From: a virus
Taxonomy: Duplodnaviria > Heunggongvirae > Uroviricota > Caudoviricetes
Direction: 5' to 3' (one strand)
DNA length: 64,000 nt
IMG/VR virus record: IMGVR_UViG_2703718819_000006
The notes below the pieces were generated by a model that did not search any database, had not been told where the DNA came from, and worked only from the letters and a program-made list of their open reading frames with translations. Shown piece after piece: positions 3,329 through 24,163 of this stretch. Made by a program: the position numbers and the translations under genes. The stretch's first letter is position 1. Every line of letters starts with the position of its first letter.

Positions 3329-4471
3329 TTACAGGTCTGCAAACTGGCTTAGAGAAGCCTTATCCACGGTAGAATCGATCTGACCTACCAGATATGTGCT
3401 TTGCTCTGCCTCTTGTGGTGCAATTTGCAGTGTGTCGGTTAACAACCACTTGTTCATCCAGACCAGCGGATCAGTGGTAACTTCTGGAAATAAAGCCTTC
3501 AGGCCAAGACGATTCATAGCCAGATTGGTGCGGTATTTTACATAGGTTTTGAGAATATCCGCGTTTAAACCAATCATCGAACCGTCTTTGAAGAGATAGT
3601 CGGCCCAGTTCATTTCTTGTTCGGCGACTGATTTCATGGTGTCGTAAATGACGTTTTCTTCATCAGCAGCAATCTCTTTCCACAATAAACCTTCGCGACC
3701 GGTACGCATGAAGCGGATCATGCGTTCAGTTCCTTCGCAATGCAGAGCTTCATCACGGGCAATAAAGCGCATAATTTTGGTGTTACCCTCAAGCAACTTC
3801 CGTTCACCAAAGGCAAACGTACATGCAAAACTTACGTAGAAACGGATCGCCTCAAGCGCATTAATGGACACCAACGTGCGGAAAAGCTGACGATGCAAAG
3901 GGTATGGCTCCCAGCCATATTCATTTACGTACAGACGCTCAAATTCCTTCTCACCTAACGACTGGCGCTCGCAGGTCATCCCATAAAGCCTGTCATATTC
4001 AGCAGAGATACTGATCGCTCGGTTGATGATTTCTTCATCCGTAACAATACCGTCAAAAACAATACTCGGATCGTCCACCATGCCACGAATAATGTGGGTG
4101 TAGCTGCGGCTATGGATAGTCTCAGAGAAAGACCACGTTTCAACCCACGTTTCCAGTTCAGGAATAGAGATAAGCGGCAGCAGCGTTGCATTTGGACTAC
4201 GTCCCTGAACTGAATCGAGTAACGTTTGATAACGGAGATTGCTCAGAAAAATGTGACGTTCGTGGTCCCGCAGCTTCGTGTTGAAGTCGATACGATCGCT
4301 CGAAATATCAACTTCTTCCGGCCGCCAGAAGAAAGACAATTGACGTTCAATCAACTTTTCAAAATCACGGTATTTTTGCTGATCGTAACGTGCCACGTTG
4401 ACAGATTGTCCGAGGAACATAGGCTCTTTGGTTGCATCATTAGCACCCAAACGGAACGTTGAATATGACAT
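3329..4471 (-). CDS. nrdB: ribonucleotide reductase class Ia beta subunit
   Basis: 380 aa; N-terminus [55 protein letters not shown] closely parallels E. coli NrdB as recalled. Confidence 0.95.
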
Positions 4472-4496
4472 GTGTTTTTCCTTTTTCTTTTTTGGT

Positions 4497-4517
4497 GCGT
4501 TTAAACAAGTTGTTATC
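4497..4517. promoter_or_regulatory. AACAAnTTGTT palindrome upstream of nrdB
   Basis: Minus-strand GATAACAACTTGTTTAAAC about 30 nt upstream of the nrdB ATG; similar sites at 18315-18332, 44135-44151, 47067-47084. Confidence 0.3.
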
Positions 4518-4577
4518 TTATGTGTTTAAACAAGGCTTACAAATCAAAGAGAAGGTGGGGATATCCCCCACCATATG

Positions 4578-6893
4578 TCAGATTTTGCAGGCTCCGTCGC
4601 ACTCATCTTCTGGCTCGACGGCTACAGCTTGCGTCAGTGGATTCTGCGGTTCGTCGTCATCACGCTTTCCTGCCCCATCTCTGGTGTTGTGGTAGTAAAG
4701 CGTTTTAACTCCCATCTTGTAGGCGAGAAGCAAATCTGACAGTAGCGTCATCATTGGGACTTTATCGCCTTCAAAGCGAGAAGGGTCATAGTTGGTATTG
4801 GCTGAAATAGCCTGGTCAAAGAACTTCTGGATGATCGCCACCTTTGTCAGATAGCCGCGGTTGTCCGGCATATCCCACAGGTATTCATACTGTTCCTTCA
4901 GTTTTTCAAACTCAGGCACGACCATCTTGACGATGCCGTCCTTAGAAGATTTCACTGACACCGGGCCACGAGGCGGTTCGATGCCGTTGGTGGAATTAGT
5001 GATCTGGCTGGAAGTCTCGCATGGCATTTGTGCCGTCAGTGTGGAGTTGCGAAGGCCGTATTTTGCAATACGTTCACGCAGTTCTTCCCACGGCATCTTT
5101 AACTCAAAGTTGGTTTCGCCACTTTCGTCTAATGAAGAACGGTAATGGTCGATCGGCAACTGACCAATTGCGTATTTGGTCTGCTCAAACCAGTCACACT
5201 CACCTTTTGCTTCAGCAAGTCGGCAGCTGGCATCAAGAAGGTAATACTGGATAGCTTCGAACGTTTCATGCACCAGTTTATTGCCAGCGGTATCAGAATA
5301 ACGAACGCCATTCTTTGCCAGGTAATAAGCAAAGTTGGTTACACCAATTCCCAAGCTACGACGAGCTTTGGCAGGCACTTCGGCTGCCTCCATCGGATAG
5401 TCTTGATAATCCAGTAACGAATCCAGTGCAGCAACGGCATAGAACGCCACCTCTTTAAGAGACTCCAGTGAACGGATGGCTCCGAGGTTAAAAGCGGATA
5501 AAGTGCATAGCGCGATCTCACCGTTCGGGTCGTCGGTAAATGCCAGTGGACGGGTGGGTAGGGTGATCTCCATACACAGGTTTGACTGGCGAACAGGTGC
5601 AAGAGCAGGAATGAAAGCGCCATGCTCATTAATATGATCGACGTTCGCAATATAAATTCGGCCCGTGGACGCTCGTTCCTGCATCAGAGATGAGAACAGC
5701 TCAATGGCAGGTACTGACTTCTTGCGAATTGAATCATCGGCTTCGTATTTATGGTACAGCTTTTCAAACAGCTCCTGGTCTGTGAAGAAGGCTTCGTACA
5801 TATCAGGCACATCATGCGGGCTGAACAGAGTGATGTTCTCGCTTCTGACGAGTCGACGGTACATTAGACGGTTACTCATGACGCCGTAATCAAGATGGCG
5901 AACGCGGTTTTCATCAATACCACGGTTATTTTTCACCACCAGCAGACTTTCAACTTCAAGATGCCAGATCGGGTAAAACGCTGTTGCTGCGCCACCACGA
6001 ACACCACCTTGCGAACAAGATTTAACAGCCGTCTGGAAATGCTTCAGGAATGGAATAACTCCAGTATGGGTGGCTTCACCATTGCGGATCTCGCTGCCCA
6101 GCGCACGGATACGGCCAAAACCAATACCAATTCCAGCACGACGTGAAACGTAGTCGATAATTGCGGCTGAAGCTGCACTAATCCCTTTCAGACTATCGCC
6201 AGACTCAATCAGCACACAACTGGAGAACTGACGGGTTGGAGTACGGACGCCGGCCATGATTGGTGTGGGCAGAGACAGTTTGAACGTACTTGTAACGTCA
6301 TAGAAACCTTTGACCATCTCCATACGTGTTTTGCCAGCGCAGTCGTCTTCCCAATTCTGGAACAGACACATGCCTACCAGCATATAGATATGTTGCGGTC
6401 CCTCATGAATCTCACCAGTAACACGGTTTTGAACGAGGTATTTGCTTTGCAACTGCACCGTAGCTGCATAGCCAAAAAGATCGTCACGTTTCGGCTTAAT
6501 GTAATTGCCGAGTTCTTCGATCTCTTCAAACGAATAATGTGTCAGCAAATCCTTGTCATAAACGCCCTTGTTAACGTTCTTGACAATGTGTTGGTAGAAG
6601 TTCGGATAGTCGTAACGACCGAAGGCATCTTTGCGGATTTTAAAAATGTTCAGGCGGGCAGCCACCTGTGAGTAATTTGGTGCTTCTGGTGAGATCAAAT
6701 CAGCGGCAGATTTAACCAAAGCCTCATGCAACTGGCTGGTGGTCATCCCATCAAAAATGCTGGCCGCAGCTCCCATTGCTACAGCGGATGCGCTTACACC
6801 ACGAATGCCTTCTACGCCATACATTACGACGCGGTTGTATTTTTCTTCGGATAACGGCTCTGTTTGGCCGTTACGTTTTACGATGCTTATCAT
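4578..6893 (-). CDS. nrdA: ribonucleotide reductase class Ia alpha subunit
   Basis: 771 aa; contains SLPTPIMAGVRTPTRQFSSCVLIE, KSCSQGGVRGGAATAFYPIWHLEVESLL, NLCMEI and C-terminal CDGACKI motifs of NrdA. Confidence 0.95.
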   Translation of the reverse strand: MISIVKRNGQTEPLSEEKYNRVVMYGVEGIRGVSASAVAMGAAASIFDGMTTSQLHEALVKSAADLISPEAPNYSQVAARLNIFKIRKDAFGRYDYPNFYQHIVKNVNKGVYDKDLLTHYSFEEIEELGNYIKPKRDDLFGYAATVQLQSKYLVQNRVTGEIHEGPQHIYMLVGMCLFQNWEDDCAGKTRMEMVKGFYDVTSTFKLSLPTPIMAGVRTPTRQFSSCVLIESGDSLKGISAASAAIIDYVSRRAGIGIGFGRIRALGSEIRNGEATHTGVIPFLKHFQTAVKSCSQGGVRGGAATAFYPIWHLEVESLLVVKNNRGIDENRVRHLDYGVMSNRLMYRRLVRSENITLFSPHDVPDMYEAFFTDQELFEKLYHKYEADDSIRKKSVPAIELFSSLMQERASTGRIYIANVDHINEHGAFIPALAPVRQSNLCMEITLPTRPLAFTDDPNGEIALCTLSAFNLGAIRSLESLKEVAFYAVAALDSLLDYQDYPMEAAEVPAKARRSLGIGVTNFAYYLAKNGVRYSDTAGNKLVHETFEAIQYYLLDASCRLAEAKGECDWFEQTKYAIGQLPIDHYRSSLDESGETNFELKMPWEELRERIAKYGLRNSTLTAQMPCETSSQITNSTNGIEPPRGPVSVKSSKDGIVKMVVPEFEKLKEQYEYLWDMPDNRGYLTKVAIIQKFFDQAISANTNYDPSRFEGDKVPMMTLLSDLLLAYKMGVKTLYYHNTRDGAGKRDDDEPQNPLTQAVAVEPEDECDGACKI

Positions 6894-6966
6894 GTATCAC
6901 CAAATAAAGAGGGCCACTAAATATAGTGGCTCATGTTAATAGATAAGCACTTACCTATCAATGAAA

Positions 6967-7536
6967 TCAAATGAGAGACTTAAGAACATCGCGCACCTGG
7001 CGGAACTGATCTGTTTGCATACCGGTATGGATGGCAGCCACCGCATCAGCCAAATGTTCGTTTTTGTTCACGAGAACATCCTGTCCAGATTGCTTACGAC
7101 GCAGCCACGGTGCTTTAGGGTGTTTTTTCGTAGCCCACTGGATAATCTCTTCTTTCGATGTAGTAAGTTTATTGCCGACAAAATGCTTGATTTCGTTTGG
7201 AGTAACCTGGATCAATGGCTTATCCACACACGCAAGTACACCGATACAAATACCGTAAGACGTCTGCGAACGAGAGTTTTGGCTCCCAACCGGTAGCTCA
7301 CAAAAAACCATATTTGCCTTATCAATGATTGGCTTCGCAACACGCCATATTTCACTGGCTCGGCGCAGATCGTCACTGTTCACACGAACGGTCTTTTTGT
7401 TACTCCCCGCTTTAGTCTCAACAAGAGTAAGGCCGTGAATCTCAAGTTCGTCCGTCTCAAGGTCTAAAGTGCCCACAGCAAGCCCAAAGTTGCTCATTGA
7501 GGGATCAACACCAACTACGCTGATTTTTTTACTCAT
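6967..7536 (-). CDS. RuvC-like Holliday junction resolvase
   Basis: 189 aa; N-terminus VVGVDPSMSNFGLAVG resembles the RuvC first strand (ILGIDPG...); C-terminal HLADAVAAIHTG. Confidence 0.6.
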   Translation of the reverse strand: MSKKISVVGVDPSMSNFGLAVGTLDLETDELEIHGLTLVETKAGSNKKTVRVNSDDLRRASEIWRVAKPIIDKANMVFCELPVGSQNSRSQTSYGICIGVLACVDKPLIQVTPNEIKHFVGNKLTTSKEEIIQWATKKHPKAPWLRRKQSGQDVLVNKNEHLADAVAAIHTGMQTDQFRQVRDVLKSLI

Positions 7537-7545
7537 ATAGTCTCC

Positions 7546-8289
7546 TTACCATGTTCCCCATATAGGGTTTTCCAATAATCTCGCCTCCAACGAATTGGCT
7601 ACTATTGCCGTTTGCAACGTTGGTTGGGGATAGTTTGCAAAGTCTGAATACTCATTTTCCTGCGTGACACGTTTATCTGCGGCATGTTTAACACCACTTG
7701 CTATGAAATGACGCATGATGCCCAACAGCCTCCGACTGTCTGCACTATCGTTTGCTAAAACATGAGGGAGCTGAAGTTCGATTTCTACCATTTCTCCATA
7801 CTTACCAACAAACTGTAGTTTGTCCGCACTGTACTTTTTATCCCTCCTTTGGATAAGGAAACCAGTAAAAGCATCACCTGGCGATGCCAAACTATCCACC
7901 CGCTTATTGGCAAGTCGAATAAGGTTCGTGAAAGCCATACAGTGATGCGCACCCATTCCCCCAAAGAACCCTTCGCTATTAATGTTAAGATCTTCAGTTT
8001 CATGGGATGCAATAAACCCAGGCCCGACGTTGGGAAGATATCCCCCCTCAACAAAAGGATTAATCAGGATCGGCGCAATACATCCAGGTGGTAGTGATTT
8101 CAAACTTTGCATCAATGGCGTCTCGGATATTAGACCAAGCAACGCGGCGAATTGTACTCCGTCAATATTGTTGCTGCCCCACAGAATACGTGGAGCCGCA
8201 CCATTGGAAGTATGCCCATTGATCAGTTTTATCGACTGCATCACTGCAAATACCTGCAAAAACTGCGAGCGGCTTAATTTAAACGACAT
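7546..8289 (-). CDS. hypothetical protein
   Basis: 247-aa ORF coupled to neighbours in the recombination cluster; no motif I can assign. Confidence 0.5.
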   Translation of the reverse strand: MSFKLSRSQFLQVFAVMQSIKLINGHTSNGAAPRILWGSNNIDGVQFAALLGLISETPLMQSLKSLPPGCIAPILINPFVEGGYLPNVGPGFIASHETEDLNINSEGFFGGMGAHHCMAFTNLIRLANKRVDSLASPGDAFTGFLIQRRDKKYSADKLQFVGKYGEMVEIELQLPHVLANDSADSRRLLGIMRHFIASGVKHAADKRVTQENEYSDFANYPQPTLQTAIVANSLEARLLENPIWGTW

Positions 8290-10195
8290 AGCTGCGCCCC
8301 TCTTTAACTTCCAGCGTAATAGTTTCCCGGAACCATGACTTCATCTCTTTATGGGAGATAATCAGCACAGTACCTCGCTCGCGAGCTTTGGACTCCAAAA
8401 TACCCATGAGGCGTTCAAGACCGGCTGTATCGAGTGCATCGTCAATTTCGTCGCCGATAAACAAATCGATGTTTTTACTCGCCCGGTTACTAACCAGATC
8501 CTGCAATGCCAAAGAACACGCAATGCGAACCTTCCGCTTCTCACCACCAGAGAGGGTCTGGAACGACTTACTTGAACCTTTCTTCTGCACACTAATGTTG
8601 AATTTGTCGCGATACTCACCTTTTTTAGTGACATCCATCGTCGACCACTCAGCAGTAATATTCCCGTCAGACAACGTATTGAGATACTCGGCAGTGCGTG
8701 TATTCAGGAAAGGCGTAACAGACGTCAAAATATGAGAACGCACCCCGGCAGGAGAGTAGACCTGACGAGCTTTTTCCAATAGCAACGTTTGTTCCTGAAT
8801 AGCCTTCAACTCATCTTTTAAGGACTTGAAGGTAGACTTACTGGATACCAGGTTATCTTCGTGTCTGGCGATAAGAGCAATAAACGGATTAATCTCTTTT
8901 GATATACGATCGACCTCAGTACGAGCACGAGTCACAAGAGACTCAATAGCAACAACCTCCTTCTCACGATGACGCAAAGATGAGAGTTGTTTCGTAAGCT
9001 CTTCAATCCGGGCAATGATAGCCGTTACATCAGGTGTCGTTTTAACAAGGGCAGACTCAATGCTTAACGCCTTCTCAAGATTCGTTTTGTGTTTAGCCAT
9101 TGCCTCTGCAAGTGTCTTCGCCTGACCAATTTCCTGACGTGCTTGTTCAATGAAATTCTCCTTCACCGTTGATAGATCTTCTTCGCAGTAGGCTTTGCCA
9201 CAAGTAGGGCATGGTGATCCCACTTTAGTACCAACCTCTTCTGCTTTGGTCTTAAAATTACGCGCGCGGTTCATTGCATCAGCCTGACTATTTTCTGTAG
9301 CGTTGATGCTTGCCCGAATATCAGTTATCGCACCACGAACTTTGAGCAACTTGGCGTCATGTTCTTCTTTTGAGGCTAACTTTTTGCGCTCACTTTCGAT
9401 TGCCTTCTCGGTATCACGGATCTGTTCGGGAAGAGTGCGGATCTCAAGTTCAACTTCCGTTAACTCAACTTCGGCACTGGCCAGCCCAGCCAGGGCATCG
9501 TCATAACGTTTAGAACGCTCTTGCTCCCATGATTCAGAGGAGGCTTTCGCTGACTCAATTTCTGACTGTGTTGCCTCAATGGTCGAGATTGTCGACTCCA
9601 ATTTGGTTTTAACCACATCCATACGTGCGGCAGCTGCATTAGCTCGCTCACGAGCAATAGCGTAGGCGCGTGTCAGTCTGTCAACGCCAGCGGCTTCTTC
9701 TACGATGGTTTTGAGGTTTTTGTCGGACATTCCAGGTAAATCTGGCATAGCTTCTTGGCTCGCATAGATGGAAGCCATGAAAACCTCTTTAGATGCACCG
9801 ATCAGACGCTCGACGAACTCTTGCGTCAGCGCATCTTTGCCTTTCGTCATATCGCCGTCTTCACCACGAACGATAAGCCGATTTTTGAACTCTTTGTGTT
9901 TACGGTGACGAATGATCGCATATCTCTTGCCTTCATCCTCGATGGTTACTGCAACACGACAGTTCTTTTCATGGTCGGTAGACAACACATCGTCACCCTT
10001 CACACCATGAGCTGTTTCGCCATAAAGACACCACATCAGGCTATTCATTAGCGTTGACTTTCCAGAGCCATTACTTGATGCGGAACTATCATCACTATTA
10101 ACACCCTGAATGAGTACTAAACCACGCTGATCTAACTCGACCTCCGCGCTGGCGATAGCCATAAAATTCTCAACCTGGAGCTTTAAAAACTTCAT
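8279..10195 (-). CDS. sbcC: SbcC/Rad50-like recombination ATPase
   Basis: 638 aa; N-terminal Walker A (GVNSDDSSASSNGSGKSTLMNSL), long central coiled-coil, C-terminal signature region (LSGGEKRKVRIACSLAL...FIGDEIDDALD). Confidence 0.85.
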   Translation of the reverse strand: MKFLKLQVENFMAIASAEVELDQRGLVLIQGVNSDDSSASSNGSGKSTLMNSLMWCLYGETAHGVKGDDVLSTDHEKNCRVAVTIEDEGKRYAIIRHRKHKEFKNRLIVRGEDGDMTKGKDALTQEFVERLIGASKEVFMASIYASQEAMPDLPGMSDKNLKTIVEEAAGVDRLTRAYAIARERANAAAARMDVVKTKLESTISTIEATQSEIESAKASSESWEQERSKRYDDALAGLASAEVELTEVELEIRTLPEQIRDTEKAIESERKKLASKEEHDAKLLKVRGAITDIRASINATENSQADAMNRARNFKTKAEEVGTKVGSPCPTCGKAYCEEDLSTVKENFIEQARQEIGQAKTLAEAMAKHKTNLEKALSIESALVKTTPDVTAIIARIEELTKQLSSLRHREKEVVAIESLVTRARTEVDRISKEINPFIALIARHEDNLVSSKSTFKSLKDELKAIQEQTLLLEKARQVYSPAGVRSHILTSVTPFLNTRTAEYLNTLSDGNITAEWSTMDVTKKGEYRDKFNISVQKKGSSKSFQTLSGGEKRKVRIACSLALQDLVSNRASKNIDLFIGDEIDDALDTAGLERLMGILESKARERGTVLIISHKEMKSWFRETITLEVKEGRSYVV

Positions 10196-10383
10196 ATAAC
10201 ACCTTTGATACCGTGTGTTAGCTTTTGACCTTCTTTCAATCTGAACTCCGTATGCGCCGGGAAGGATCTGCGCCTCAATACGCCTTTTCTGGTTAACCTT
10301 CCAAGATAAAACGCTACGGGATTTCCTTGTGGCGGGTAGGGCTTGTGAAACATCACCGTCTGGCCTCGTTCAAGTCTTTTCAT
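10192..10383 (-). CDS. possible small basic protein (63 aa)
   Basis: ATG-initiated ORF in the 229-bp spacer between sbcD and sbcC; its stop overlaps the sbcC start (ATGA). No clear Shine-Dalgarno. Confidence 0.2.
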   Translation of the reverse strand: MKRLERGQTVMFHKPYPPQGNPVAFYLGRLTRKGVLRRRSFPAHTEFRLKEGQKLTHGIKGVI

Positions 10384-10424
10384 CGTGATGGCAAAGTCTC
10401 GAAAGCTCCCATAACGACTTTGCC

Positions 10425-11510
10425 TCACACAGCCTCCGAACTCTCCGCTTCGGTGAGGATTTCCTGACACAAAATATCCAACTTGCTTAGATCAAATCCG
10501 CCGTCAGTATCGTGGACAATCTTGCAATAAGCAGATACCGACTCTCCCAGGCTATCGATTTTGCTGGTTTCCGTTGTGCTTGCTGTCCCTTCCATCATTG
10601 ATGACTTACGGATGAAGTTGCACACGACACCTTTTGCACCCATTGTTTTGAGGATGTTCTGGTACTTAATGCCTTCTTCATCGTTCTCAATTACGGCGCG
10701 GAAACGCACGTAGTTGCCGCGAATTTGGTCATCGGCAACATAATCTTCCAGGTTAATGAATTTAGGCGCACTGGTTTCGTAGTGACTGAAACTGCCGTCC
10801 GGGTTTACGATCATGTAACCAGCCAGAGATCCAACATCTCCCCAATTTTGATGGGTCAGCGCACCGACACTGATAACTCCAGGAATGACCTCTTTGTGGT
10901 TGTGGTAATGCCCACTAAGCACGAGACGAAAGCCGATATCCTTTAACTCCTGCGCATCGATACCGACGTCAGGCATTGTTGGAATGGCTTTGTTAATGGA
11001 TGTATGGATAACAACGTCATGATTATCACCTTCTACGCTCTTACGTAATGCTTTCAGATCGCTGATAAGCTCCGCATGATTGTTACGCCAGCTAATCAGG
11101 TGGACAGTCACATCACCAATTTTTATTGAGTGTGGGCGTTTGCCACATACGATTACCACGCCGATAGAACTCAGCGATGCTGCTGCGTTGGCGCTATATA
11201 CTGAATCGTTGGTTTCAAGATCGTGATTACCGGCCAGCATTACTACTGTCAGATCAAGCTCGTTGATAATCCACTTGTACGTTTCAGTTACGTAATGCAA
11301 AACAGAAGGGGACACAGTTCCTCGGACGTGAAATGTATCACCGGCAATCAGCATGTACTTACAACCGGCCTTCTTCATGGCGATGGCTGCTTCTTTCGTT
11401 GCTTCCAACTGTATTTCAAGTCTGGAGTTAAGCCCCTCAGCGTTCGTCGTGGAGAACGCATCCCATTTGTGGTAGTGGCAGTCAGAAATGACGCCGTATG
11501 GCAAAGTCAT
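10425..11510 (-). CDS. sbcD: SbcD/Mre11-like nuclease
   Basis: 361 aa; calcineurin-like phosphoesterase motifs (VISDCHYH, IAGDTFH, MLAGNHD, SGHYHNH). Confidence 0.85.
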   Translation of the reverse strand: MTLPYGVISDCHYHKWDAFSTTNAEGLNSRLEIQLEATKEAAIAMKKAGCKYMLIAGDTFHVRGTVSPSVLHYVTETYKWIINELDLTVVMLAGNHDLETNDSVYSANAAASLSSIGVVIVCGKRPHSIKIGDVTVHLISWRNNHAELISDLKALRKSVEGDNHDVVIHTSINKAIPTMPDVGIDAQELKDIGFRLVLSGHYHNHKEVIPGVISVGALTHQNWGDVGSLAGYMIVNPDGSFSHYETSAPKFINLEDYVADDQIRGNYVRFRAVIENDEEGIKYQNILKTMGAKGVVCNFIRKSSMMEGTASTTETSKIDSLGESVSAYCKIVHDTDGGFDLSKLDILCQEILTEAESSEAV

Positions 11511-11764
11511 GTGTTTTTCCTTTGTGGTTATTTTGATACAAATTTTAAGAGCAATGAGAAGGTAAACAACTATGCATAACGGTATGTTAGGAATGAAACG
11601 AGCGCATTAATATACAAAATTTATAAGTAAGTATATACCTATTTGTTGTGACGCAACTTTGCTTGTCTGTATGACTAAAAATAAGACAGGATCACTGTAG
11701 AACGCTATGAGAGCTATTTTGAGGGGGCGTAGATTCTATCTACGCCAATATACGATCTGGAGGG

Positions 11765-12409
11765 TTACAGCGCGTCAGTGGGCTTTTTACGCGCTGCGTT
11801 TATGCTTATGACGCCAGCTTTTGGACGTGGGTCAACAAGGTTAAGCTCTTCTTCACTGTGGTATTCGAGGTCGAACTCACGTTTTACATGTCTGATGTAG
11901 ATTGCGGTGAGTAGGCTATCTTTGGTCAAAAAGTGTCCGTAGGATTTGCGGATCACTTCTTCAACCTTCTCGATTTTCTCACCACCCATGCAGAGGTGAT
12001 TAAACCGGCTGTGTTTCCGCAACATCTCGTCAACTGGGCCTGAGTAAACCTTGTCTACTTTCCCAAAACGAATGATTTTTCCTGTATCTGCGGATACAAG
12101 GCAAATCAGTTTGTCTGGTGATAAACGATCTCGCCACGTCACACCTGAACGGAGTGTGTTGAAGTAGGGGGCATCCAATCCGATGATCGGTTTACGAAAT
12201 GCGAGCAATGGAACGTACCTAATACAACTATTCAAATGAAAGTTCACACCAGCCTTATCAAGTTTAATTCTGGTTTCGTAGATCGGGCACTTCGCCGCTA
12301 TACCGCAGATATCACAAAGTAACTTCTGCTTATTCAGGTTGGAATTTGATTCGATAGTGTAGGAGCCGTCCTCAAGACGACGAACCCAGCGCGTGCGTTT
12401 TAGATCCAT
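11765..12409 (-). CDS. hypothetical protein (Cys-containing, possible zinc-binding)
   Basis: 214-aa ORF with CDICGIAAKC; no family recognised. Confidence 0.45.
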   Translation of the reverse strand: MDLKRTRWVRRLEDGSYTIESNSNLNKQKLLCDICGIAAKCPIYETRIKLDKAGVNFHLNSCIRYVPLLAFRKPIIGLDAPYFNTLRSGVTWRDRLSPDKLICLVSADTGKIIRFGKVDKVYSGPVDEMLRKHSRFNHLCMGGEKIEKVEEVIRKSYGHFLTKDSLLTAIYIRHVKREFDLEYHSEEELNLVDPRPKAGVISINAARKKPTDAL

Positions 12410-12496
12410 AATCGTTTTTTCAGTAGTTATTGGCCGATGCTACGATAACTCATTAGGCATACCTTAATCTGCATTTGCCTGTTTACTTATCCCAGT

Positions 12497-12568
12497 TATC
12501 CACTGGATAGATCCAAATAAGAGATCCCAAGTAAGATCAAATAGAAGATCCAAAGAGATCCCCGATCG
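12497..12568. promoter_or_regulatory. DnaA-box-like site plus GATC cluster (origin-proximal module A)
   Basis: TTATCCACT at 12497-12505, then six GATC sites within about 60 bp (12510-12568) embedded in about 11-bp direct repeats. Confidence 0.5.
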
Positions 12569-12610
12569 CCTCTAGCCGTTGCGGTTACTGGTCTGAAAGG
12601 GTGTTGCCAT

Positions 12611-12710
12611 CCACTATGGAGAGCAAAGAAACCTCTGTAGAGAGCTGAATAACCGCTATGAAGAGTAAAACAACCACTCTGGAGAGCTGTATATATCCAC
12701 TGTAGAGAGT
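12611..12710. repeat. iteron array A (5 direct repeats, about 21-bp period)
   Basis: CCACTATGGAGAGC / CCTCTGTAGAGAGC / CCGCTATGAAGAGT / CCACTCTGGAGAGC / CCACTGTAGAGAGT starting at 12611, 12632, 12653, 12674, 12697. Confidence 0.7.
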
Positions 12711-12720
12711 AGAGCACATT

Positions 12721-12880
12721 GTCTTTTATGGATAACTTAATGACTTAATTCTTCATTAACATACTGATATACATAGATATATTTTAAACTCTACTCTTAG
12801 TCATGATTCTTATGTCCTTAAATATCCACAGAAGAGTAGAGTTACCTGTTCTTGAAATCCTCTGATTTTTATCCACAGGC
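12721..12880. promoter_or_regulatory. AT-rich spacer with perfect DnaA box (TTATCCACA at 12869-12877)
   Basis: Visibly AT-rich stretch between the two iteron modules; consensus DnaA box at its right edge and a near-consensus ATATCCACA at 12822-12830. Confidence 0.45.
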
Positions 12881-12991
12881 CCGATCCAGTAATTCAGATC
12901 ACAAAGAGAACCAAAGAGACCCATAAAGACCCAATAAGATCCCCGCCCACCTCAAACCGTTGTGCCATCTGCCTTCAGACATGATCGATAT

Positions 12992-13110
12992 CCACTATAG
13001 AGAGCGAATAATCCACTATAGGGAGCAAAGCAACCACTATAGAGAGGAGAAAAACCACTATAGACGGTAGGATAACCGCTGTGATGAGTGCTACTATCCA
13101 CTGTAATCAG
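12992..13110. repeat. iteron array B (6 direct repeats, 21-bp period) immediately upstream of rep
   Basis: CCACTATAGAGAG-type cores at 12992, 13013, 13034, 13055, 13076 (degenerate) and 13097; preceded by GATC sites at 12883, 12897, 12938, 12983. Confidence 0.75.
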
Positions 13111-13151
13111 CAAAGGCCACCAAAGCCGTCGAATAACAAGAGACATTTGGA

Positions 13152-14207
13152 ATGAGCGAAAACGGCAATAAAAACATAGCGATCGTTGAAGCATTTTCAG
13201 AAACAGATAAAAAGACAGGCGAAGTTGTTACGTTGGTTCCTAACACTAATAACACTGTTCAGCCTGTTGCTTTGATGCGTCTGGGCCTCTTCGTTCCGAC
13301 GCTGAAATCGACATCCAGAGGAAGAAAGGGGCAAATGGTCTCTATGGATGCCTCTGCTGAACTCAAACAGCTGTCTCTGGCAAAAGCCGAAGGGTACGAA
13401 GACATAAGGATCTCTGGCCTTCGGCTTGATATGGATAACGACTTTAAAACGTGGGTGGGAATAATCCACGCGTTTGCCAAACACAAGGTCGTTGGCGATA
13501 CTGTCACGTTGCCGTTCGTTGAGTTTGTAAGGCTGTGTGGCATTCCGACCGCCAGGTCATCAGCGAAGTTACGCAAACGCCTGGACAGTTCGCTAAGCCG
13601 TATTGCCACAAACACCATCTCGTTCCGTAGCAAAGGCTCTGATGAGTTTTACGTAACGCATCTTGTGCAAACGGCAAAATATAGTGTCAAGCACGATACG
13701 GTCGAACTGAAAGCAGATCCCAAGATTTTCGAACTCTACCAGTTCGACAAAAAGGTTCTTCTGCAACTCCGGGCTATAAACGAACTCTCAAGAAAAGAAT
13801 CCGCTCAGGCGCTTTATACTTTTATTGAAAGTTTGCCGCCTGATCCGGCACCAATATCACTAGCCCGTTTACGCGCCAGACTTAATCTGACAAGTCGCAC
13901 TATTACTCAGAATGCGACGGTAAGAAAGGCTATGGAACAGCTGCGAGAGATAGGATATCTCGATTACACGGAAGTTAAGCGCGGAAACTCGGTCTACTTC
14001 GTCATCCACTATAGGCGGCCAAAGTTACGCCAGGCACAAATATCAACAAAAATCGATAATGATGAGACGGAATATAGCCTCCCAGATGAGAATCAAGATG
14101 ACATTATCGACGTTGTGCCTGACGAAAAAGAAGGCAAAATGGTCATGTTGAGTAAAGAAGAACTGGCACTTCTCGAAGAGTTGCGCAAGGCAAAGACTCG
14201 CAAATAG
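13152..14207 (+). CDS. repA: iteron-binding replication initiator (RepA/RepE-like)
   Basis: 351-aa plus-strand ORF flanked on both sides by iteron arrays; the segment [13 protein letters not shown]...[14 protein letters not shown] parallels the RepE region AMRLYESLCQY...IVSLKIDWIIERYQL as I recall it. Confidence 0.65.
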
Positions 14208-19521: not shown

Positions 19522-21861
19522 TTACTCTTCTACTGACTCGGTGGGATTGTCTTTTGATCTCCGGTCGTCGATTGCCTGTAAAGCCGCAATGATTTCAGCT
19601 AGTGGCTTCTCCCGATACATCTCGACGATCTGTGATTTGGTGTATTTCTTGTCACCAATTTCTACTCGACCGCTGGCGTTCTTTGGCAGGTATCCTTCTT
19701 CCAGCATGTACTCGACGAGCGACTCGATAACGTCGAGGCCACGAGTAGGATCGAAGTAGAATTTCCAGGTGCATTTGCCATACGGTGGTGCAACTTTGTT
19801 TTTGATGCACTCTGCGCCTACGTCCTGGCCGATCTTCTCTTTCCCATCCTTCATCACCGATGCACCGAGACGGATGCGCACAGAAGCGTAAAACTTCGGT
19901 GAATCGCCGCCTGGAGACGTAGTAGGGTCGCCAAACATTACACCGATTTTTGTGCGAACCTGATTCAAGAAGATGATGCAGGCGTTGTATTTGCGTGCCC
20001 ACAAAGCCAGAGTAGGGAAGTTCGCACTCGTCGCACGAGCCAGCGCCGTATTGTCGTTCATGTTTAGCTGATCTTTGTCTTTGGCAGTGCCTTCAGCCAT
20101 CTTTTCGAACTTCTCGGCTTTGGAGTTCGGAACCATAGACGCAAGTGAGTCAGCCACGATACAGATAGGTGCTGATTCAGGAATAAGCTCTTCATCACGT
20201 ACCAATTTAAGAATTGTGCCGATCAACTCTACAGAGTCTTCGAAGGTATCAGGCTGCTTGTATACCCACTGACCGTCATCCTCATCTGCATTCAAACCAT
20301 TGGCTACAGCCAGGCCAACGTCAAAACTGTTTTCATGATCGAGGAATACCGCCAGACCATCTTGTTTTTGAGCGGAGATCATCGCTGCTGTTGCAAGGAA
20401 TGTGTTGTGGCTGATAATCCCGTTAGACCAGAAAGAGTGTGTTTCCGGCATCGCTACGTCGAACGTTGGTGCTTCACCTTCCTCAATAGCCACGACTTCG
20501 TCGTAGAACAAGTTAGAGCCAATTACCGCTGCCAGTTGTGCAAACAGATGCTCGTTAAAACGATTCTTTCTGCCAATGAAGGAGACATAGATTTCTCGCA
20601 GTTTGTCTATTCCGACACGATCGCCGCGGCCAATAACGTGGTCTACCAGAGCGTAGTCTTCACGGGTGGTCTTGGTGAGCGACTCGTAGAGTGATTTCAC
20701 TAAGCCGCTGATGTGCGGAACATAGCCTGAGTAAGTGCGGTCAAAACCAATGTCCCGTTTGGTTGCCACTGATAAACGTGCCGGAGATTCGAAACCAATC
20801 GTTGACAGAAAAAGGTCGTAATTAGAGCCACTGAATGACAGCCGGTAATATGTATTTTCATAACCCGCGACGTGTTTTTCAGAGATAGTTGACGTAATCC
20901 CCAGATTCAGGAGCATGAGGCGAATTTGCTGTAGCAGCAGCCCACTCGCGCTCACAACCTCAATGCAGCGACCATCATTGACGTGGCATTCCAGCTCAAA
21001 GTAGCCGCGAAGGAATGCAATTTGAGCCTCGCTATTGGCGCGACGCACACTCAACGGAACCTGCTTGCCAGCAGCTTTCTCATACTCCAGACCATATTCT
21101 TTAAAAAGCAGCGAACGCACCTCTTTGCTAAACAGCACATGGTCTTCCGAGCCGTTATGTTTTCTCGTAACTGGCATCTTGTCTGATACCAGCGAAATGA
21201 GGCGGTAGTACTCATCCTTGATGAAAGGATCTGTGTTAGAAAAATTCACTGAATTTTCAGAGGCCACGTATCCGTCAGCAATTAAATAGCCCATCAGTTT
21301 TGCGATATTGGCATCCAGGTGCTGATCGCCGAATTGATGTGTGCCAACCATTGAAGGAATCGTGTCGCCTACACTGATTTTTTCAGCATGTCGCCAGACG
21401 ACATTACCTAAGTCGTCAACCACACGGATTGGGTGACGGAACGTAGCCTCGATATAACCGCCTGATGCCAGCTTAATACGCTTGAATTTGCGACGGTTGT
21501 TCCATGTCAGGTGTGAGGTCTTCTCTATCACGCCATTTTCATTGATGAGTCCAACGTTATGCTCTACATCGCGAGTAGTGCATGTCGCTTTGTACCCTTC
21601 AATCTCAAACAACTCTTTCACTGTTACCATTCCACGCTCCGTCAGCAGCATGGTGTCTGCGGTAACACATTTCCCCGCGCTTGGAGGACCGAATACTTCT
21701 ACGATACGACCACATGGGAAACCGCCATCGTAACGACCGGAAATAGCTTTGTTTAACGGAGGAAAGCCTGTGTCAATCCAATGAGTTACTTTCTGAATTT
21801 CGTCGTTGCTACCGATTTTCTTTTTCAGAGCAAGTGCCAGTGCGGATTTTCCTTTTGCCAT
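19522..21861 (-). CDS. recA: RecA/UvsX-family recombinase interrupted by an intein
   Basis: 779 aa. Exteins (about 357 aa) carry GRIVEVFGPPSAGK|T and IIFLNQVRTKIGVMFGDPTTSPGGDSPKFYASVRIRL, closely paralleling E. coli RecA as recalled. Confidence 0.85.
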   Translation of the reverse strand: MAKGKSALALALKKKIGSNDEIQKVTHWIDTGFPPLNKAISGRYDGGFPCGRIVEVFGPPSAGKCVTADTMLLTERGMVTVKELFEIEGYKATCTTRDVEHNVGLINENGVIEKTSHLTWNNRRKFKRIKLASGGYIEATFRHPIRVVDDLGNVVWRHAEKISVGDTIPSMVGTHQFGDQHLDANIAKLMGYLIADGYVASENSVNFSNTDPFIKDEYYRLISLVSDKMPVTRKHNGSEDHVLFSKEVRSLLFKEYGLEYEKAAGKQVPLSVRRANSEAQIAFLRGYFELECHVNDGRCIEVVSASGLLLQQIRLMLLNLGITSTISEKHVAGYENTYYRLSFSGSNYDLFLSTIGFESPARLSVATKRDIGFDRTYSGYVPHISGLVKSLYESLTKTTREDYALVDHVIGRGDRVGIDKLREIYVSFIGRKNRFNEHLFAQLAAVIGSNLFYDEVVAIEEGEAPTFDVAMPETHSFWSNGIISHNTFLATAAMISAQKQDGLAVFLDHENSFDVGLAVANGLNADEDDGQWVYKQPDTFEDSVELIGTILKLVRDEELIPESAPICIVADSLASMVPNSKAEKFEKMAEGTAKDKDQLNMNDNTALARATSANFPTLALWARKYNACIIFLNQVRTKIGVMFGDPTTSPGGDSPKFYASVRIRLGASVMKDGKEKIGQDVGAECIKNKVAPPYGKCTWKFYFDPTRGLDVIESLVEYMLEEGYLPKNASGRVEIGDKKYTKSQIVEMYREKPLAEIIAALQAIDDRRSKDNPTESVEE
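20404..21669 (-). mobile_element. intein (about 422 aa) with LAGLIDADG homing-endonuclease domain, inserted in the RecA P-loop
   Basis: Starts with Cys right after GPPSAGK (CVTADTMLL...) and ends ...GIISHN followed by Thr (the extein T of GKT); internal LMGYLIADGY and FLRGYFELEC motifs. Confidence 0.75.
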
Positions 21862-21863
21862 GA

Positions 21864-22136
21864 TCAGGCTCCTTTTGTTTCGTTGATTCGTTTTAAAGCG
21901 GCGGATTCGTCGAATACAATCGCATCGTGGTTAAGGTGTTTGGATACACGAGCGAGGATTTTTACGATCTGCTCGCTGACTAATCCAAACTCGCGATCTG
22001 TCGCTTTCATTCCGGCAGTGCCTAGAATTGACGGCAGTGCGATGACAGCGTACTCACCGTGATAAAAGACAATCTCTTTTGCCAGTTGGGTAGGGGTGGT
22101 GGTAGCGCCATTAATAATCGATTTAAGCATTAGCAA
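21864..22136 (-). CDS. hypothetical protein
   Basis: 90-aa ORF between recA-like and flap endonuclease genes, overlapping the latter by 7 nt. Confidence 0.4.
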   Translation of the reverse strand: MLMLKSIINGATTTPTQLAKEIVFYHGEYAVIALPSILGTAGMKATDREFGLVSEQIVKILARVSKHLNHDAIVFDESAALKRINETKGA

Positions 22137-23074
22137 TACCTTTCGAATGGAAGAACAAACACTTCAAGGTCTTCAAGGAACGAACGGAAATTCAGCTCGT
22201 AGCACAGTTGCTCGAATGCTTTCACGTCACGATTGCCTTTGATTGTTTCGATTTCGGTAGGCGGAAACTTCGTCTCAATCAGGTTCATTAGCGTGATGTT
22301 TCTCTTGAACGCTTCGAGCATTCGACAGCCTGTTTTCTCGTTGAAGGCATTCTTCGCTAGTTTGTTGAAGGCGGTCTTATGACGCCCTTTATTAACCACG
22401 ATTGAGCCGTCGTTGATGCCGCGTACCATCGTTGCGACACTTCCCCATTCATGCAGCAGCTCTTTCGCACCGCCAGCACCAATGCCACCAACACCGCTAA
22501 TGTTGTCCGAGTTATCGCCTTGTAATGCTTTTGCTTCCAAAAATGCGCGAGGCGTGGCGAATCCTGTCAGCTCCGCAAATTGCTCAAAATTAACCTGCTT
22601 GTTTTTGGCGTCTTCACGCAGGCTTACCCAGCTTACGTTTTCGCGAACTAACTGAAGCCAGTCGCTATCGCCTGTTAACAGATAGATGTGTTCAACGGTT
22701 GGCTGCGGTGCCATGCGGGATACCAGCAGCCCGGCCAGATCATCCGCTTCTGCATCTTTTGCAATGATTTGGTTAACACCAAGCGCGGTCATCATTTTGA
22801 GGATGTATGGCTTCTGGATAGCAAAGCCTTCCTTCATCTTTTTCATATCAGGATCGTCGTCGCGATTTGCTTTGTAGTCCGGGTAAAAGTCGCGACGCTT
22901 GTCACTAAATCCATCCCAAAGAATCATAGGTCGGGCATGGAGGATGGAGGCATAACGACGGACGTTCTTAACAAAGCCGAAAGCAGCCTGTACTTCCATT
23001 TCGCCGTTGTGCAATTTGTCAGATTGTTGGTGGTAATAACCCAGGCTATTGCCATCTACGAAGAGATAATTCAC
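22130..23074 (-). CDS. 5'-3' exonuclease / flap endonuclease
   Basis: Motifs YLFVDGNSLGYY, AKDAEADD, LTGDSDWLQL, GVGGIGAGGAKELL. The longest ORF reaches 23125, but a terminator hairpin lies at 23090-23118; a GTG at 23074 with an AAGGAA Shine-Dalgarno is the likelier start. Confidence 0.85.
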   Translation of the reverse strand: MNYLFVDGNSLGYYHQQSDKLHNGEMEVQAAFGFVKNVRRYASILHARPMILWDGFSDKRRDFYPDYKANRDDDPDMKKMKEGFAIQKPYILKMMTALGVNQIIAKDAEADDLAGLLVSRMAPQPTVEHIYLLTGDSDWLQLVRENVSWVSLREDAKNKQVNFEQFAELTGFATPRAFLEAKALQGDNSDNISGVGGIGAGGAKELLHEWGSVATMVRGINDGSIVVNKGRHKTAFNKLAKNAFNEKTGCRMLEAFKRNITLMNLIETKFPPTEIETIKGNRDVKAFEQLCYELNFRSFLEDLEVFVLPFERYC

Positions 23075-23089
23075 CGGTACATTCCTTCC

Positions 23090-23118
23090 AAAAAGTAAGG
23101 CGTCCGTAGACGCCTTAC
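23090..23118 (-). terminator. rho-independent terminator after SSB gene
   Basis: 10-bp stem GTAAGGCGTC/GACGCCTTAC with 4-nt loop, followed on the minus strand by TTTTT. Confidence 0.65.
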
Positions 23119-23134
23119 TGGTCACGTAATGGGA

Positions 23135-24163
23135 TTACAGAGAGTCCAGCTCTCTCAGTAGATCATCCAGACCTTCATCTTCCACCGCAGATGCTGCGGC
23201 TACAGGTGTTGCTGCGACTGCTTCAGAGTCTTTGACTGATACAGCAACGGCAGCGGAACTTGCCTCTGGTTTAAATTCAGTTTCAACGGCACGGAGGATT
23301 TCTTCATCAACCAGACTGGTTGGTTCAGAAGCCGGTGTGTGCGCGGTTGCTACAGCCGTCGCTCCTTCTGTATGACCAGTGACAGAGCCAAATCCAGGTA
23401 GTGCCGCAGCCGATGTTTTCGCGGTTGAGGAAATTGCTGGTGCAGATGCTGCGGCAGTTGGTGCAGCGATGCCAATCAGACGACCCATAGTGCGAACTGT
23501 CGACAGAAGACGAGTTTCATCAGCCTGATTTGCGTATGCGATCAGATCATGCTGGGTGTTCCAGAATTTATCTTCGATATCGCCTTTGTAGACTTTACGC
23601 TTAGGCGAGACGTCATATTTGGTATCGCGACCAGAGCCAGTACGTTTAATCAGGAATGCGTAGCCTTCCTCTTTGCTCAGTGGATTGCCGATATCATCAG
23701 CGATGTCTTCGGTGATTGCTTTGCAGATATCATCGAATACAGTAGACGGCAGCTCGATTAACTGGCATTTCTCAGCATCTGCGAAATCCTCACGAGCAGA
23801 AAGAATGCCGTTGACCAGGTAGCGAGGAGTGGCACGCATTTGACCGATGCGTTCTTCCATTGCTTTGTTACCCTTGTGACGAGCGCGACCTTCCATCACC
23901 ATTTCGCATAGCTGACAAGCGCGACCGTGAGTATGTTGCTCACAAATATAAGCGTTGGTTGCTTCTTTACCTTCCTCGTTCTGATACTTAACGTAGTGCA
24001 TACCGAAAGTCTGGAAGAACTTACCGTTTGGGTCGTCTTTATTCGGGAAGATGCGGATATAGTTGACGCCGTCTTTTAAGCGAGTCAGATCAACGTTGTT
24101 ACCACGTTTGGCGGCAATGTCTTCACGAGTTTTGTTAAGCAAATCAAGTAATGTCTTAGACAT
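23135..24163 (-). CDS. single-stranded DNA-binding protein (T4 gp32-like)
   Basis: 342 aa; GVNYIRIFPNKDDPNGKFFQTFGMHYV parallels the gp32 segment as recalled; Cys/His cluster (CEQHTHGRACQLC); Ala/Ser-rich linker and acidic C-terminal tail (EDEGLDDLLRELDSL). Confidence 0.65.
   Translation of the reverse strand: MSKTLLDLLNKTREDIAAKRGNNVDLTRLKDGVNYIRIFPNKDDPNGKFFQTFGMHYVKYQNEEGKEATNAYICEQHTHGRACQLCEMVMEGRARHKGNKAMEERIGQMRATPRYLVNGILSAREDFADAEKCQLIELPSTVFDDICKAITEDIADDIGNPLSKEEGYAFLIKRTGSGRDTKYDVSPKRKVYKGDIEDKFWNTQHDLIAYANQADETRLLSTVRTMGRLIGIAAPTAAASAPAISSTAKTSAAALPGFGSVTGHTEGATAVATAHTPASEPTSLVDEEILRAVETEFKPEASSAAVAVSVKDSEAVAATPVAAASAVEDEGLDDLLRELDSL

Follow-up and report, generated by a model that had tools for sequence, protein, structure and literature searches.

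A fast-evolving orphan protein encoded between SbcC and a RuvC-like resolvase in an SSU5-type phage-plasmid bears a C-terminal tail shared with other phage orphans and may be a docked accessory protein

Results

Organization of the SbcD-to-RuvC unit

We analyzed a stretch of viral DNA of 64,000 nucleotides (IMG/VR record IMGVR_UViG_2703718819_000006, Caudoviricetes), hereafter called the window, and focused on a protein of 247 amino acids, designated p247, whose gene lies between those for SbcC and a RuvC-like Holliday-junction resolvase. A 4.7 kb region around the p247 unit shares 99.3-99.5% identity with both Escherichia phage CMS-2020a and phage Cyrano, the latter being the pLF82 phage-plasmid of E. 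coli LF82. The same region is 76.5% identical to Salmonella phage SSU5 in its SbcC-SbcD part only. On the basis of these sequence matches, the window is classed as an SSU5-type phage-plasmid. The local gene order is RepA on the plus strand followed on the minus strand by an ASCH-like gene, SbcD, SbcC, p247 (hypothetical), RuvC, NrdA, NrdB, MazG, and ThyX. Within this series, SbcD, an open reading frame (ORF) of 63 amino acids, SbcC, p247, and the RuvC-like gene form a unit that is followed by a terminator-like hairpin:

10425-11510, minus strand: SbcD/Mre11-like metallophosphoesterase, 361 amino acids, first in the unit (Pfam Metallophos, 6.6e-10; phrog_100, 9.6e-93; annotated in Cyrano as 'SbcD-like endonuclease subunit')
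10192-10383, minus strand: conserved 63-amino-acid ORF in the gap between SbcD and SbcC (stop codon overlaps the SbcC start codon as ATGA; 75% identity to the annotated SSU5_074)
8279-10195, minus strand: SbcC/Rad50-like ATPase, 638 amino acids, with a CPTC zinc hook (AAA_23, 6.7e-17; SMC_N; SbcC_Walker_B; phrog_77, 5e-165; Rad50/SbcC NCBIfam matches)
7546-8289, minus strand: p247, orphan protein of phrog_2117, 247 amino acids, between SbcC and the RuvC-like gene
7594-7680, minus strand: variable, predicted-disordered linker of p247, residues 204-232 (low pLDDT, low conservation)
7549-7569, minus strand: C-terminal tail of p247, N-P-I-W-G-T-W-COOH (E240, W244, and W247 invariant)
6967-7536, minus strand: RuvC-like Holliday-junction resolvase, 189 amino acids, last in the unit (phrog_159, 3e-57; weak NCBIfam RuvC match)
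6913-6930, minus strand: terminator-like hairpin with a T-run, 37 nucleotides past the RuvC stop codon (consensus match only)

An initial annotation of this DNA, made from the sequence alone, had placed the RuvC-like, 247-amino-acid, SbcC, and SbcD reading frames on the minus strand at these positions, and both an ORF check and family matches confirm the placement. SbcC is a Rad50-type ABC ATPase with a coiled coil and a CxxC hook (CPTC in the translation), and it is partnered by a calcineurin-like phosphoesterase, as expected of SbcCD. In the RuvC-like protein, D11, E80, H161, and D164 are invariant across 21 diverse homologues, which matches the D-E-(H/D)-D catalytic set predicted for RNase H-like resolvases. 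The conserved 63-amino-acid ORF, which the initial annotation lacked, occupies most of the gap between SbcD and SbcC. It has no Pfam match; gene callers predict it in five related elements (L006-L010; L numbers denote loci from related elements), it is absent from the divergent element L002, and it is unannotated in Cyrano.

The coupling of the p247 gene to its neighbors proved as tight as first described. Its ATG overlaps the end of SbcC by 11 nucleotides, and 9 nucleotides that include the Shine-Dalgarno sequence AAGGAG separate its stop codon from the ATG of the RuvC-like gene. No promoter-like site was found on the minus strand from SbcD to the RuvC stop codon. The hairpin at 6913-6930 is the probable end of the SbcD-to-RuvC transcription unit; terminator-like sites in the region total no more than in shuffled sequences, so that it is suggestive by its position alone.

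p247 belongs to an orphan family and evolves rapidly

p247 matches phrog_2117, a family of 'unknown function', from end to end (2e-127; residues 1-247 against profile positions 1-248 of 248). Its equivalents in Cyrano and SSU5, CYRAN_67 (99% identity) and SSU5_076, are both annotated as hypothetical proteins. The initial annotation had recognized no motif in the protein, and this holds: used as a single sequence and as a profile, p247 has no match in Pfam (E<=0.1), NCBIfam, PADLOC, or PDB sequences, which leaves phrog_2117 as its only match, and no known family unrelated to DNA metabolism was found for it. Matches to 14-3-3 and TRAP1 were at chance level (E 0.17 or worse) and were rejected. 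The PADLOC result is a weak test, because that database holds defense systems and not anti-defense proteins. A word-indexed search of 5.8 billion proteins returned 48 clusters; all derive from Enterobacterales, and their contigs are compatible with phage-plasmids of ~100-110 kb. The family has more than 1000 members. When 1.84 billion representatives were searched exhaustively with a profile, the 25 matches comprised the family itself only; its most distant members (P0059, P0065, and P0066) are 24-27% identical to p247. The gene is real, as judged from the more than 1000 members, a ratio of nonsynonymous to synonymous substitution (dN/dS) well under 1, and its annotation as CYRAN_67 and SSU5_076. 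In open-access papers and preprints we found no literature on the phrog_2117/CYRAN_67/SSU5_076 family and nothing relevant on the recombination genes of SSU5 and pHCM2 or on accessory proteins of phage Mre11-Rad50.

Between the window and SSU5, p247 is 48% identical, as compared with 87% for SbcD, 82% for SbcC, 87% for RuvC, 87% for NrdA, and 89% for NrdB. The corresponding values against the divergent element L002 are 27% for p247 and 65-77% for its neighbors. When the window was compared with L006 or L008 by the Nei-Gojobori method, dN/dS was 0.27-0.31 for p247 and 0.02-0.05 for each neighbor. Thus, p247 is under purifying selection and is ~6-10 times less constrained than its neighbors, or is partly under diversifying selection. 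Comparison of L006 with L008 yields a dS of 0.135 and a dN of 0.037 for p247, and a dS of 0.011 for SbcC and 0.041 for RuvC; this contrast suggests recombinational exchange centered on p247.

A related mosaic is visible on a larger scale. Across 3329-14207 of the window, RepA and NrdA/B differ from those of L006 by a dS of 0.01-0.05, and SbcC and RuvC differ by a dS of ~0.8. Between L006 and L008, p247 is the only gene of the SbcD-to-RuvC unit that differs; NrdA and NrdB diverge as well. The two comparisons together point to exchange of the SbcC-p247-RuvC segment by recombination among E. coli phage-plasmids.

Conservation and predicted structure of p247

Fourteen residues are invariant in the whole p247 family: M1, S2, L5, Q12, Q46, L50, P58, M60, P73, Y84, F195, E240, W244, and W247. 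Apart from E240, which lies in the tail, the whole-family alignment contains no invariant acidic, His, Lys, or Cys residue, and the catalytic residues expected of RNase H-like or PD-(D/E)XK nucleases are missing. Conservation within the protein is highest in a Pro/Gly-rich segment at residues 72-92 (A-P-I-L-I-N-P-F-x-E-G-G-Y-L-P-x-x-G-P-G-F) and lowest in residues 131-190 and in the linker, which has a column identity of 0.39-0.61. Structure prediction, which had been proposed as a check on the initial annotation, produced a usable AF2 model (pLDDT 74.8, pTM 0.76). Residues 1-203 form a confident core, and pLDDT falls below 50 at residues 202-232 (linker) and 240-247 (tail). The model therefore depicts p247 as an alpha/beta core of ~200 residues joined by a probably disordered linker to a conserved C-terminal tail. 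Comparison of the model with PDB and BFVD revealed no fold match and, specifically, no nuclease, helicase, or DNA-binding fold. FHA and BRCT domains were absent by Pfam (E<=0.1) and by fold search, and there was no functional Pfam or PHROG match to mediators or annealing proteins (UvsY, ERF, Red-beta/RecT, and Rad52-like). An ERF-type identity was considered and rejected, because the weak BFVD matches to such proteins (TM 0.11-0.17, E>=0.08) are noise.

These results bear on the suggestion in the initial annotation that p247 is an additional DNA-processing factor. The link to DNA metabolism stands, inasmuch as the order SbcC, X, RuvC is widely kept (see below). The notion of a processing enzyme fares poorly in view of the missing catalytic residues, the lack of a fold match, and the 6-10 times faster evolution. 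p247 might still be a divergent enzyme or DNA-binding factor (a nuclease cofactor, a UvsY-like mediator, or an annealing protein) whose fold has diverged beyond recognition. Its operon context with SbcCD and RuvC speaks for such a role, a predicted alpha/beta structure with no matches leaves room for a new catalytic fold, and the few very weak BFVD hits were to ERF-type proteins. However, the invariant residues are hydrophobic, Pro, Gly, or Gln, plus those of the tail, and include no Asp/Glu/His/Lys/Cys set; the family is acidic to neutral (pI 4.4-6.7); the ERF matches are at noise level; and substitutions accumulate at 6-10 times the rate seen in the enzymes. We consider a divergent enzyme or DNA-binding factor improbable.

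The SbcC-RuvC slot is always filled

The RuvC-like protein is much commoner than p247 (347 matches at E<=1e-5) and served as bait to gather slot loci from genomes, IMG/VR, and annotated phages. In all loci examined, an SbcC gene located no more than 5 kb upstream of the RuvC-like gene is separated from it by one or more ORFs, at least one of which encodes 143-306 amino acids. Filled slots occur in enterobacterial elements (Klebsiella), Xenorhabdus, Morganella, Photobacterium, Pseudomonas phage nickie, Rhizobium phage RHEph10, Faunimonas, Roseospira, Janthinobacterium, and several metagenome-assembled genomes (MAGs). The order SbcC, X, RuvC-like is kept in phages of alpha-, beta-, and gammaproteobacteria. 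In the window, Cyrano, SSU5, L002, L003, and L006-L010, the slot holds p247 with its start overlapping the end of SbcC. Most slot proteins have no detectable similarity to p247. Alignment of profiles with hhalign gave only a 29-column N-terminal match to the Klebsiella slot protein L012, part of which is constrained by the SbcC overlap, and nothing for L011 (Xenorhabdus) or L013 (Photobacterium).

The site at which the tailed slot gene meets the RuvC-like gene is a hot spot for insertions. Among the E. coli elements L104-L108 from IMG/VR (about 4228-5004), some carry an extra ORF of 258 amino acids at this junction, and a remnant of 65 amino acids persists in L106 and L108; phage nickie has a NUMOD4/HNH_3 homing endonuclease there (L121, 5468-5998). 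In the L104 group, the ORF that matches SbcC is longer, ~720 amino acids from the first possible start codon. In Photobacterium ganghwense (L013 and L021), a block of SbcD, SbcC, slot gene, RuvC, and ribonucleotide reductase genes lies inside contigs of 1.0-2.0 Mb and may represent an integrated or chromid-borne relative instead of a 100-kb plasmid.

A common C-terminal tail on otherwise dissimilar proteins

The C-terminus of p247 reads E-N-P-I-W-G-T-W, and proteins that occupy the slot in other lineages end in variants of the same sequence:

p247 family: W-G-T-W or W-A-T-W
L012 (Klebsiella): W-G-M-F
Xenorhabdus: F-G-S-F
L020 (Morganella): M-G-S-F
Photobacterium and L025: F-G-S-W
L024: F-G-T-W
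L027: Y-G-S-W
L034, L148, and L152: W-G-S-W
L030 (three tandem genes): W-G-[MLI]-F
RHEph10: F-G-R-F
nickie: [F/I]-G-G-W-A
L039: W-G-M-F-G

Tabulation of 43 tailed proteins from at least 15 phage lineages yielded the consensus [E/A]-[N/H]-P-x-[W/F/Y]-G-[S/T/R/M]-[W/F](G/A)-COOH. Gly is present in 41 of 43 tails, Pro at position -5 in 22, and Asn or His at position -6 in 24. Inside proteins of the tail-bearing phages, the background frequency of the pattern is ~7e-4 per position. The codons used for Gly and Ser and the stop codons vary among the 43 genes; therefore, it is the peptide, and not the underlying DNA, that is under selection. We rejected the possibility that the tail is kept for the ribosome-binding site of the downstream RuvC gene, since the motif recurs with other codons, stops, and downstream contexts. 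We propose a class of tail-bearing 'Ar-G-x-Ar-COOH' proteins (Ar, aromatic) of SSU5-supergroup phages. p247 has two of its features, the motif [W/F/Y]-G/A-x-[W/F](G/A), usually following [N/H]-P-x, at the extreme C-terminus and, as modeled, a flexible and variable linker behind a folded body. No description of the motif was found in open-access papers and preprints, and it may have been described elsewhere.

Among nonredundant loci from the genome scan, the tail was present in 10 of 10 SbcC-positive lineages and in 0 of 10 RuvC-only loci (Fisher p ~1e-5, a value confounded by the phylogenetic difference between the two groups); L020, which ends M-G-S-F, was counted as positive although the search expression misses it. 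An independent scan of IMG/VR was blind to gene context and sought the DNA pattern that encodes N-P-x-W-G-x-W-stop. It retrieved 82 stretches, 80 of which were analyzed. All matches that end ORFs of more than 90 amino acids fall in the SbcC-RuvC slot or in a slot between primase and ligase genes, except for two (L130 and an ORF of 114 amino acids in L152), and chance matches end ORFs of less than 40 amino acids. The tailed ORF in L130 encodes 306 amino acids and adjoins the gene for a virion protein; this could be a chance match or an unrelated protein.

The behavior of the tail can be set against the possibility that p247 is nearly dispensable filler held in place by translational coupling, with the tail as a historical relic. 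Its high substitution rate and the occasional database alleles with truncations or frameshifts (P0038 and P0006, for example) are what such a protein would display. Nevertheless, a dN/dS of about 0.2-0.3 indicates selection on the protein, the slot is never empty in SbcC-positive relatives, and the amino-acid sequence of the tail is maintained despite varying codons in proteins that otherwise cannot be aligned. Filler is thus very unlikely.

Other tailed proteins share a genome-specific variant of the motif

Three of the 414 ORFs of at least 40 amino acids in the window match the tail pattern: p247, a spurious ORF of 42 amino acids, and a second orphan, p258:

40662-41438, minus strand: p258, orphan protein of phrog_4248 (CYRAN_34), 258 amino acids, ending M-I-S-W-G-S-W, between the DnaG-like primase and an ORF of 160 amino acids that precedes the ATP-dependent ligase

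The complete 108-kb Cyrano genome contains no tailed genes other than CYRAN_67 and CYRAN_34. The search with p258 returned nine clusters, and its AF2 model was poor (pLDDT 59) and was not used for fold search. Like p247, p258 evolves quickly: in a relative whose primase, DnaB, and ligase retain 68-77% identity, the protein at the equivalent position shares 24%.

Several genomes contain more than two tailed proteins. Phage nickie has seven annotated coding sequences with the tail, as compared with ~0.1 expected by chance, and all seven carry an extra small residue at the end (...G-x-[W/F]-[A/G]). RHEph10 has seven tailed proteins, six of which end [F/Y]-G-R-F. Three tails in L030 follow W-G-x-F, and both tails in L027 are Y-G-S-W. 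Two Klebsiella elements differ from one another (W-A-T-W versus W-G-M-F). Tails therefore agree within a genome and differ between genomes, as would be expected from the sequences if a single co-evolving pocket accommodates all tails of a genome.

Agreement of this kind is relevant to a different view of the tail, that it is a C-terminal signal for degradation, timing, or localization, read by a host protease or the membrane, that gives its carriers a common lifetime or location. Host proteases recognize hydrophobic or aromatic C-terminal tags, and the motif is aromatic, lies at the extreme C-terminus, and is found on functionally unrelated small proteins. The genome-specific variants (the added A or G in 7 of 7 nickie tails, R at position x in 6 of 7 from RHEph10, and the two Klebsiella endings) favor instead a co-evolving and probably phage-encoded reader, and the near-invariant Gly together with the frequent N-P two residues upstream suggests a specific bound conformation. 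We regard a degradation or localization signal as unlikely.

Only two tailed proteins have a recognizable domain; apart from the phrog_2117 and phrog_4248 matches of p247 and p258, the remainder have no Pfam or PHROG match. RHEph10 gp034 (L211, 29985-30629), which is tailed and occupies the primase slot, contains a WGR domain (Pfam, 9e-16), a module that binds DNA breaks. A tailed MAG protein of 124 amino acids contains an ExoX-like_C motif. These two carriers appear to link the tailed proteins to DNA metabolism. No homology could be shown between p247 and p258 or between either of them and the RHEph10 WGR protein.

Another possibility is that p247 and the other tailed orphans are host-directed effectors of take-over or counter-defense. 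According to this explanation, the bodies track variable host targets (for example, host RecBCD or SbcCD, or defense systems that detect intermediates of phage recombination), the tail brings them to a shared site, and p247 has a role like that of Gam or Abc. The very fast body beside slow enzymes is readily explained in this way, as is the resemblance of the p247-centered segment to an exchanged cassette (the L006/L008 contrast in dS described above). The orphans have no assigned Pfam or PHROG function, several tailed proteins of nickie and RHEph10 are encoded among groups of small ORFs of early type, and phage recombination modules often carry an inhibitor of host nucleases. On the other hand, p247 bears no similarity to Gam, Abc, gp5.9-type, or PADLOC/anti-defense families, its pI is only mildly acidic and thus not that of a DNA mimic, its gene-wide dN/dS is 0.3 and not above 1, and the slot is kept across hosts as distant as Rhizobium and E. 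coli. An effector function is possible, if doubtful. The genome-specific variants make a degradation or localization signal less likely than an effector function, and the enzyme and filler explanations are less likely again.

Replication and recombination genes elsewhere in the window

The initial annotation had also listed a RecA/UvsX-like recombinase, a gp32-like single-stranded DNA-binding protein (SSB), and a flap endonuclease (FEN); all three are encoded in the window, outside the SbcD-to-RuvC unit, and are given here with two further loci:

11765-12409, minus strand: protein of 214 amino acids, phrog_2105 (ASCH domain by Cyrano annotation; no Pfam match here)
19522-21861, minus strand: RecA/UvsX-like protein, 779 amino acids, with an internal LAGLIDADG intein
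22130-23125: 5'-3' exonuclease/FEN
23135-24163: gp32-like SSB (PF08804, 1.7e-66)
28537-31976, minus strand: CobS-like (AAA_5/MoxR) and CobT-like (VWA) pair adjoining the DnaE-type polymerase, kept in Cyrano, nickie, and RHEph10

In the RecA/UvsX-like protein, Intein_splicing covers residues 73-486, LAGLIDADG_3 residues 279-356, and the RecA domain residues 484-703. The phrog_2105 gene lies directly upstream of SbcD in most SSU5-type elements examined. These include RHEph10 (gp056), in which two more genes intervene before SbcD. The window also encodes a DnaE-type polymerase, a DnaB-like helicase, a DnaG-like primase, an ATP-dependent ligase, and the CobS/CobT-like pair; RepA is present, as is a UvsW homologue alongside those of gp32 and UvsX. 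The description of this gene set as a T4-like toolkit is thus accurate for gp32, UvsX, and UvsW. It does not suit the element as a whole, an SSU5-type phage-plasmid with RepA and replication proteins of the DnaB-like, DnaG-like, and DnaE types. Moreover, the order SbcD, SbcC, resolvase is shared by the D12-D13-D14 genes of T5, and the module is thus no more T4-like than T5-like.

Discussion

The reality of the p247 gene, its coupling, the conserved slot, its fast evolution, the lack of catalytic signatures, the shared tail, and the genome-specific tail variants were observed directly. From these features and from analogy with known docking peptides we infer a docking role for the tail, the existence of a hub to which it docks, and the candidates for that hub. 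Our working interpretation, which we advance tentatively, is that p247 may serve as a non-catalytic adaptor or regulator that docks through its tail onto a hub of phage DNA metabolism.

According to the docked-adaptor model, translational coupling would tie production of p247 to that of the nuclease and the resolvase, probably in the lytic phase or upon induction. CYRAN_65-68 do not appear in the table of Cyrano genes expressed during lysogeny (PMC9928086), an absence that is consistent, if indirectly, with a lytic-phase function. The protein would consist of a compact alpha/beta body, a flexible linker of ~30 residues, and the extreme C-terminal sequence [N/H]-P-x-W-G-x-W-COOH, and this peptide would act as a short docking motif that enters a pocket on a hub protein of replication or recombination. 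p258, encoded in the primase-ligase module, would use this hub as well, and so would the tailed proteins of relatives, which number up to seven in a genome. A lineage-specific activity would be brought to the hub by the variable body, which would regulate or target end resection and junction resolution or else protect both reactions from host factors. The hub might be SbcCD, the gp32-like SSB, or the RecA-like recombinase; further candidates are the CobS/CobT-like MoxR-VWA pair and the DnaE replicase together with the host clamp. The complete set is common to Cyrano, nickie, and RHEph10 (SbcCD, gp32-like SSB, RecA-like, UvsW-like, DnaB/DnaG-like, and DnaE/DnaQ-like proteins, ligase, FEN, and the CobS/CobT-like pair), and presence or absence of genes therefore does not pinpoint the hub.

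The docking mechanism is suggested by the resemblance of the tail to the C-terminus of SSB (SSB-Ct), to clamp-binding motifs, and to the tails of T7 gp2.5 and gp4. C-terminal docking in DNA metabolism is exemplified by E. coli SSB-Ct (D-D-D-I-P-F), the clamp-binding motifs QL[SD]LF and Q-L-x-L-x-L, the gp45-binding tails of T4 proteins, and the acidic, Phe-terminated tails of T7 gp2.5 and gp4. The phage tails resemble these in being short motifs at the extreme C-terminus, behind a flexible linker, with an aromatic end and a free carboxylate, on several proteins of DNA metabolism per genome. They differ in their sequence, N-P-x-Ar-G-x-Ar, in which Gly is almost invariant and Gln and acidic runs are missing, and in their carriers, which are fast-evolving orphans and not known enzymes. 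The 43-tail consensus does not match that of SSB-Ct or of clamp-binding peptides, as there is no Gln at -4, position -1 varies, and Gly stands at -2. Docking peptides are thus a known kind of device; the motif, its carriers, and the presumed hub appear to be new.

Nbs1/Xrs2 offers a second analogy. It is a non-catalytic partner of Mre11-Rad50 that evolves much faster than either protein and binds Mre11 through an N-F-K-x-F motif in its C-terminal region. p247 would likewise be a non-catalytic partner found with Mre11-Rad50, it evolves much faster, and its motif has two aromatic residues three positions apart. Unlike Nbs1/Xrs2, p247 lacks FHA and BRCT domains and any similarity of sequence or fold to that protein, and the phage motif lies at the very C-terminus and is also borne by proteins unrelated to SbcCD. 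Lambda Gam and P22 Abc1/Abc2 provide precedent for small, non-enzymatic proteins inside recombination modules, and p247 is comparable in this respect; it has no sequence or structural similarity to them, and neither Gam nor Abc has a comparable shared tail. In T5, D12-D13-D14 likewise encodes SbcD, SbcC, and then a Holliday-junction resolvase, with FEN (D15) nearby. The T5 resolvase is of the RusA type and follows D13 directly, with no intervening gene. No tailed ORF was found in 50 kb around the T5 replication genes, and the replication apparatus of T5 differs.

Several considerations weigh against the docked-adaptor model. All tail-positive genomes that were examined in full (Cyrano, nickie, and RHEph10) have a gene order of the SSU5 type; therefore, co-occurrence of the tail with SbcCD is inseparable from shared ancestry. 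T5 has SbcCD and a resolvase yet has neither the slot gene nor tails. A body that evolves so rapidly is atypical of stoichiometric subunits in conserved machines, and the docking role is argued from analogy. Many of the tailed proteins of nickie and RHEph10 are found among small early ORFs, far from SbcCD, and such scattered carriers fit a general hub or host targeting better than a subunit specific to SbcCD. Assignment of p247 and the slot proteins of L011, L012, and L013 to a single family was rejected, as homology is not demonstrable, and the tailed proteins are therefore not claimed as one family. The effector explanation is the main rival; it accounts better for the rapid evolution and for the carriers in small early regions, and it is compatible with a docking tail.

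It is tempting to speculate on a more specific form of the docked-adaptor model. The SSU5 supergroup might use a peptide code by which two to at least seven lineage-matched orphans per genome, each ending N-P-x-Ar-G-x-Ar, are recruited to one phage hub, either the viral Mre11-Rad50 or the CobS/CobT-like pair. By analogy with Nbs1, p247 would then be a third subunit of SbcCD that couples end resection to junction resolution, and its changing body would adapt the machine to different hosts. We consider this specific version doubtful. Even so, there is a sizeable chance that the tail marks a new hub-and-client organization.

SSU5-like phage-plasmids, a group that includes pHCM2, pECOH89, and Cyrano, occur widely among clinical Enterobacteriaceae, and for most of their genes no function has been assigned. 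If the tail is indeed a shared docking element, a simple sequence rule would gather many orphan genes of one phage supergroup into a single functional class and would point to a hub that organizes replication and recombination in these phages. To our knowledge, no accessory subunit of a bacterial-type or viral Mre11-Rad50 has been described, and p247 would be the first if the hub is the phage SbcCD. Should the hub prove to be the CobS/CobT-like pair, the tailed proteins would be the first candidate clients of a common, unexplained phage module. In addition, a constant tail on a fast-changing body provides a practical handle for finding genes involved in host interaction.

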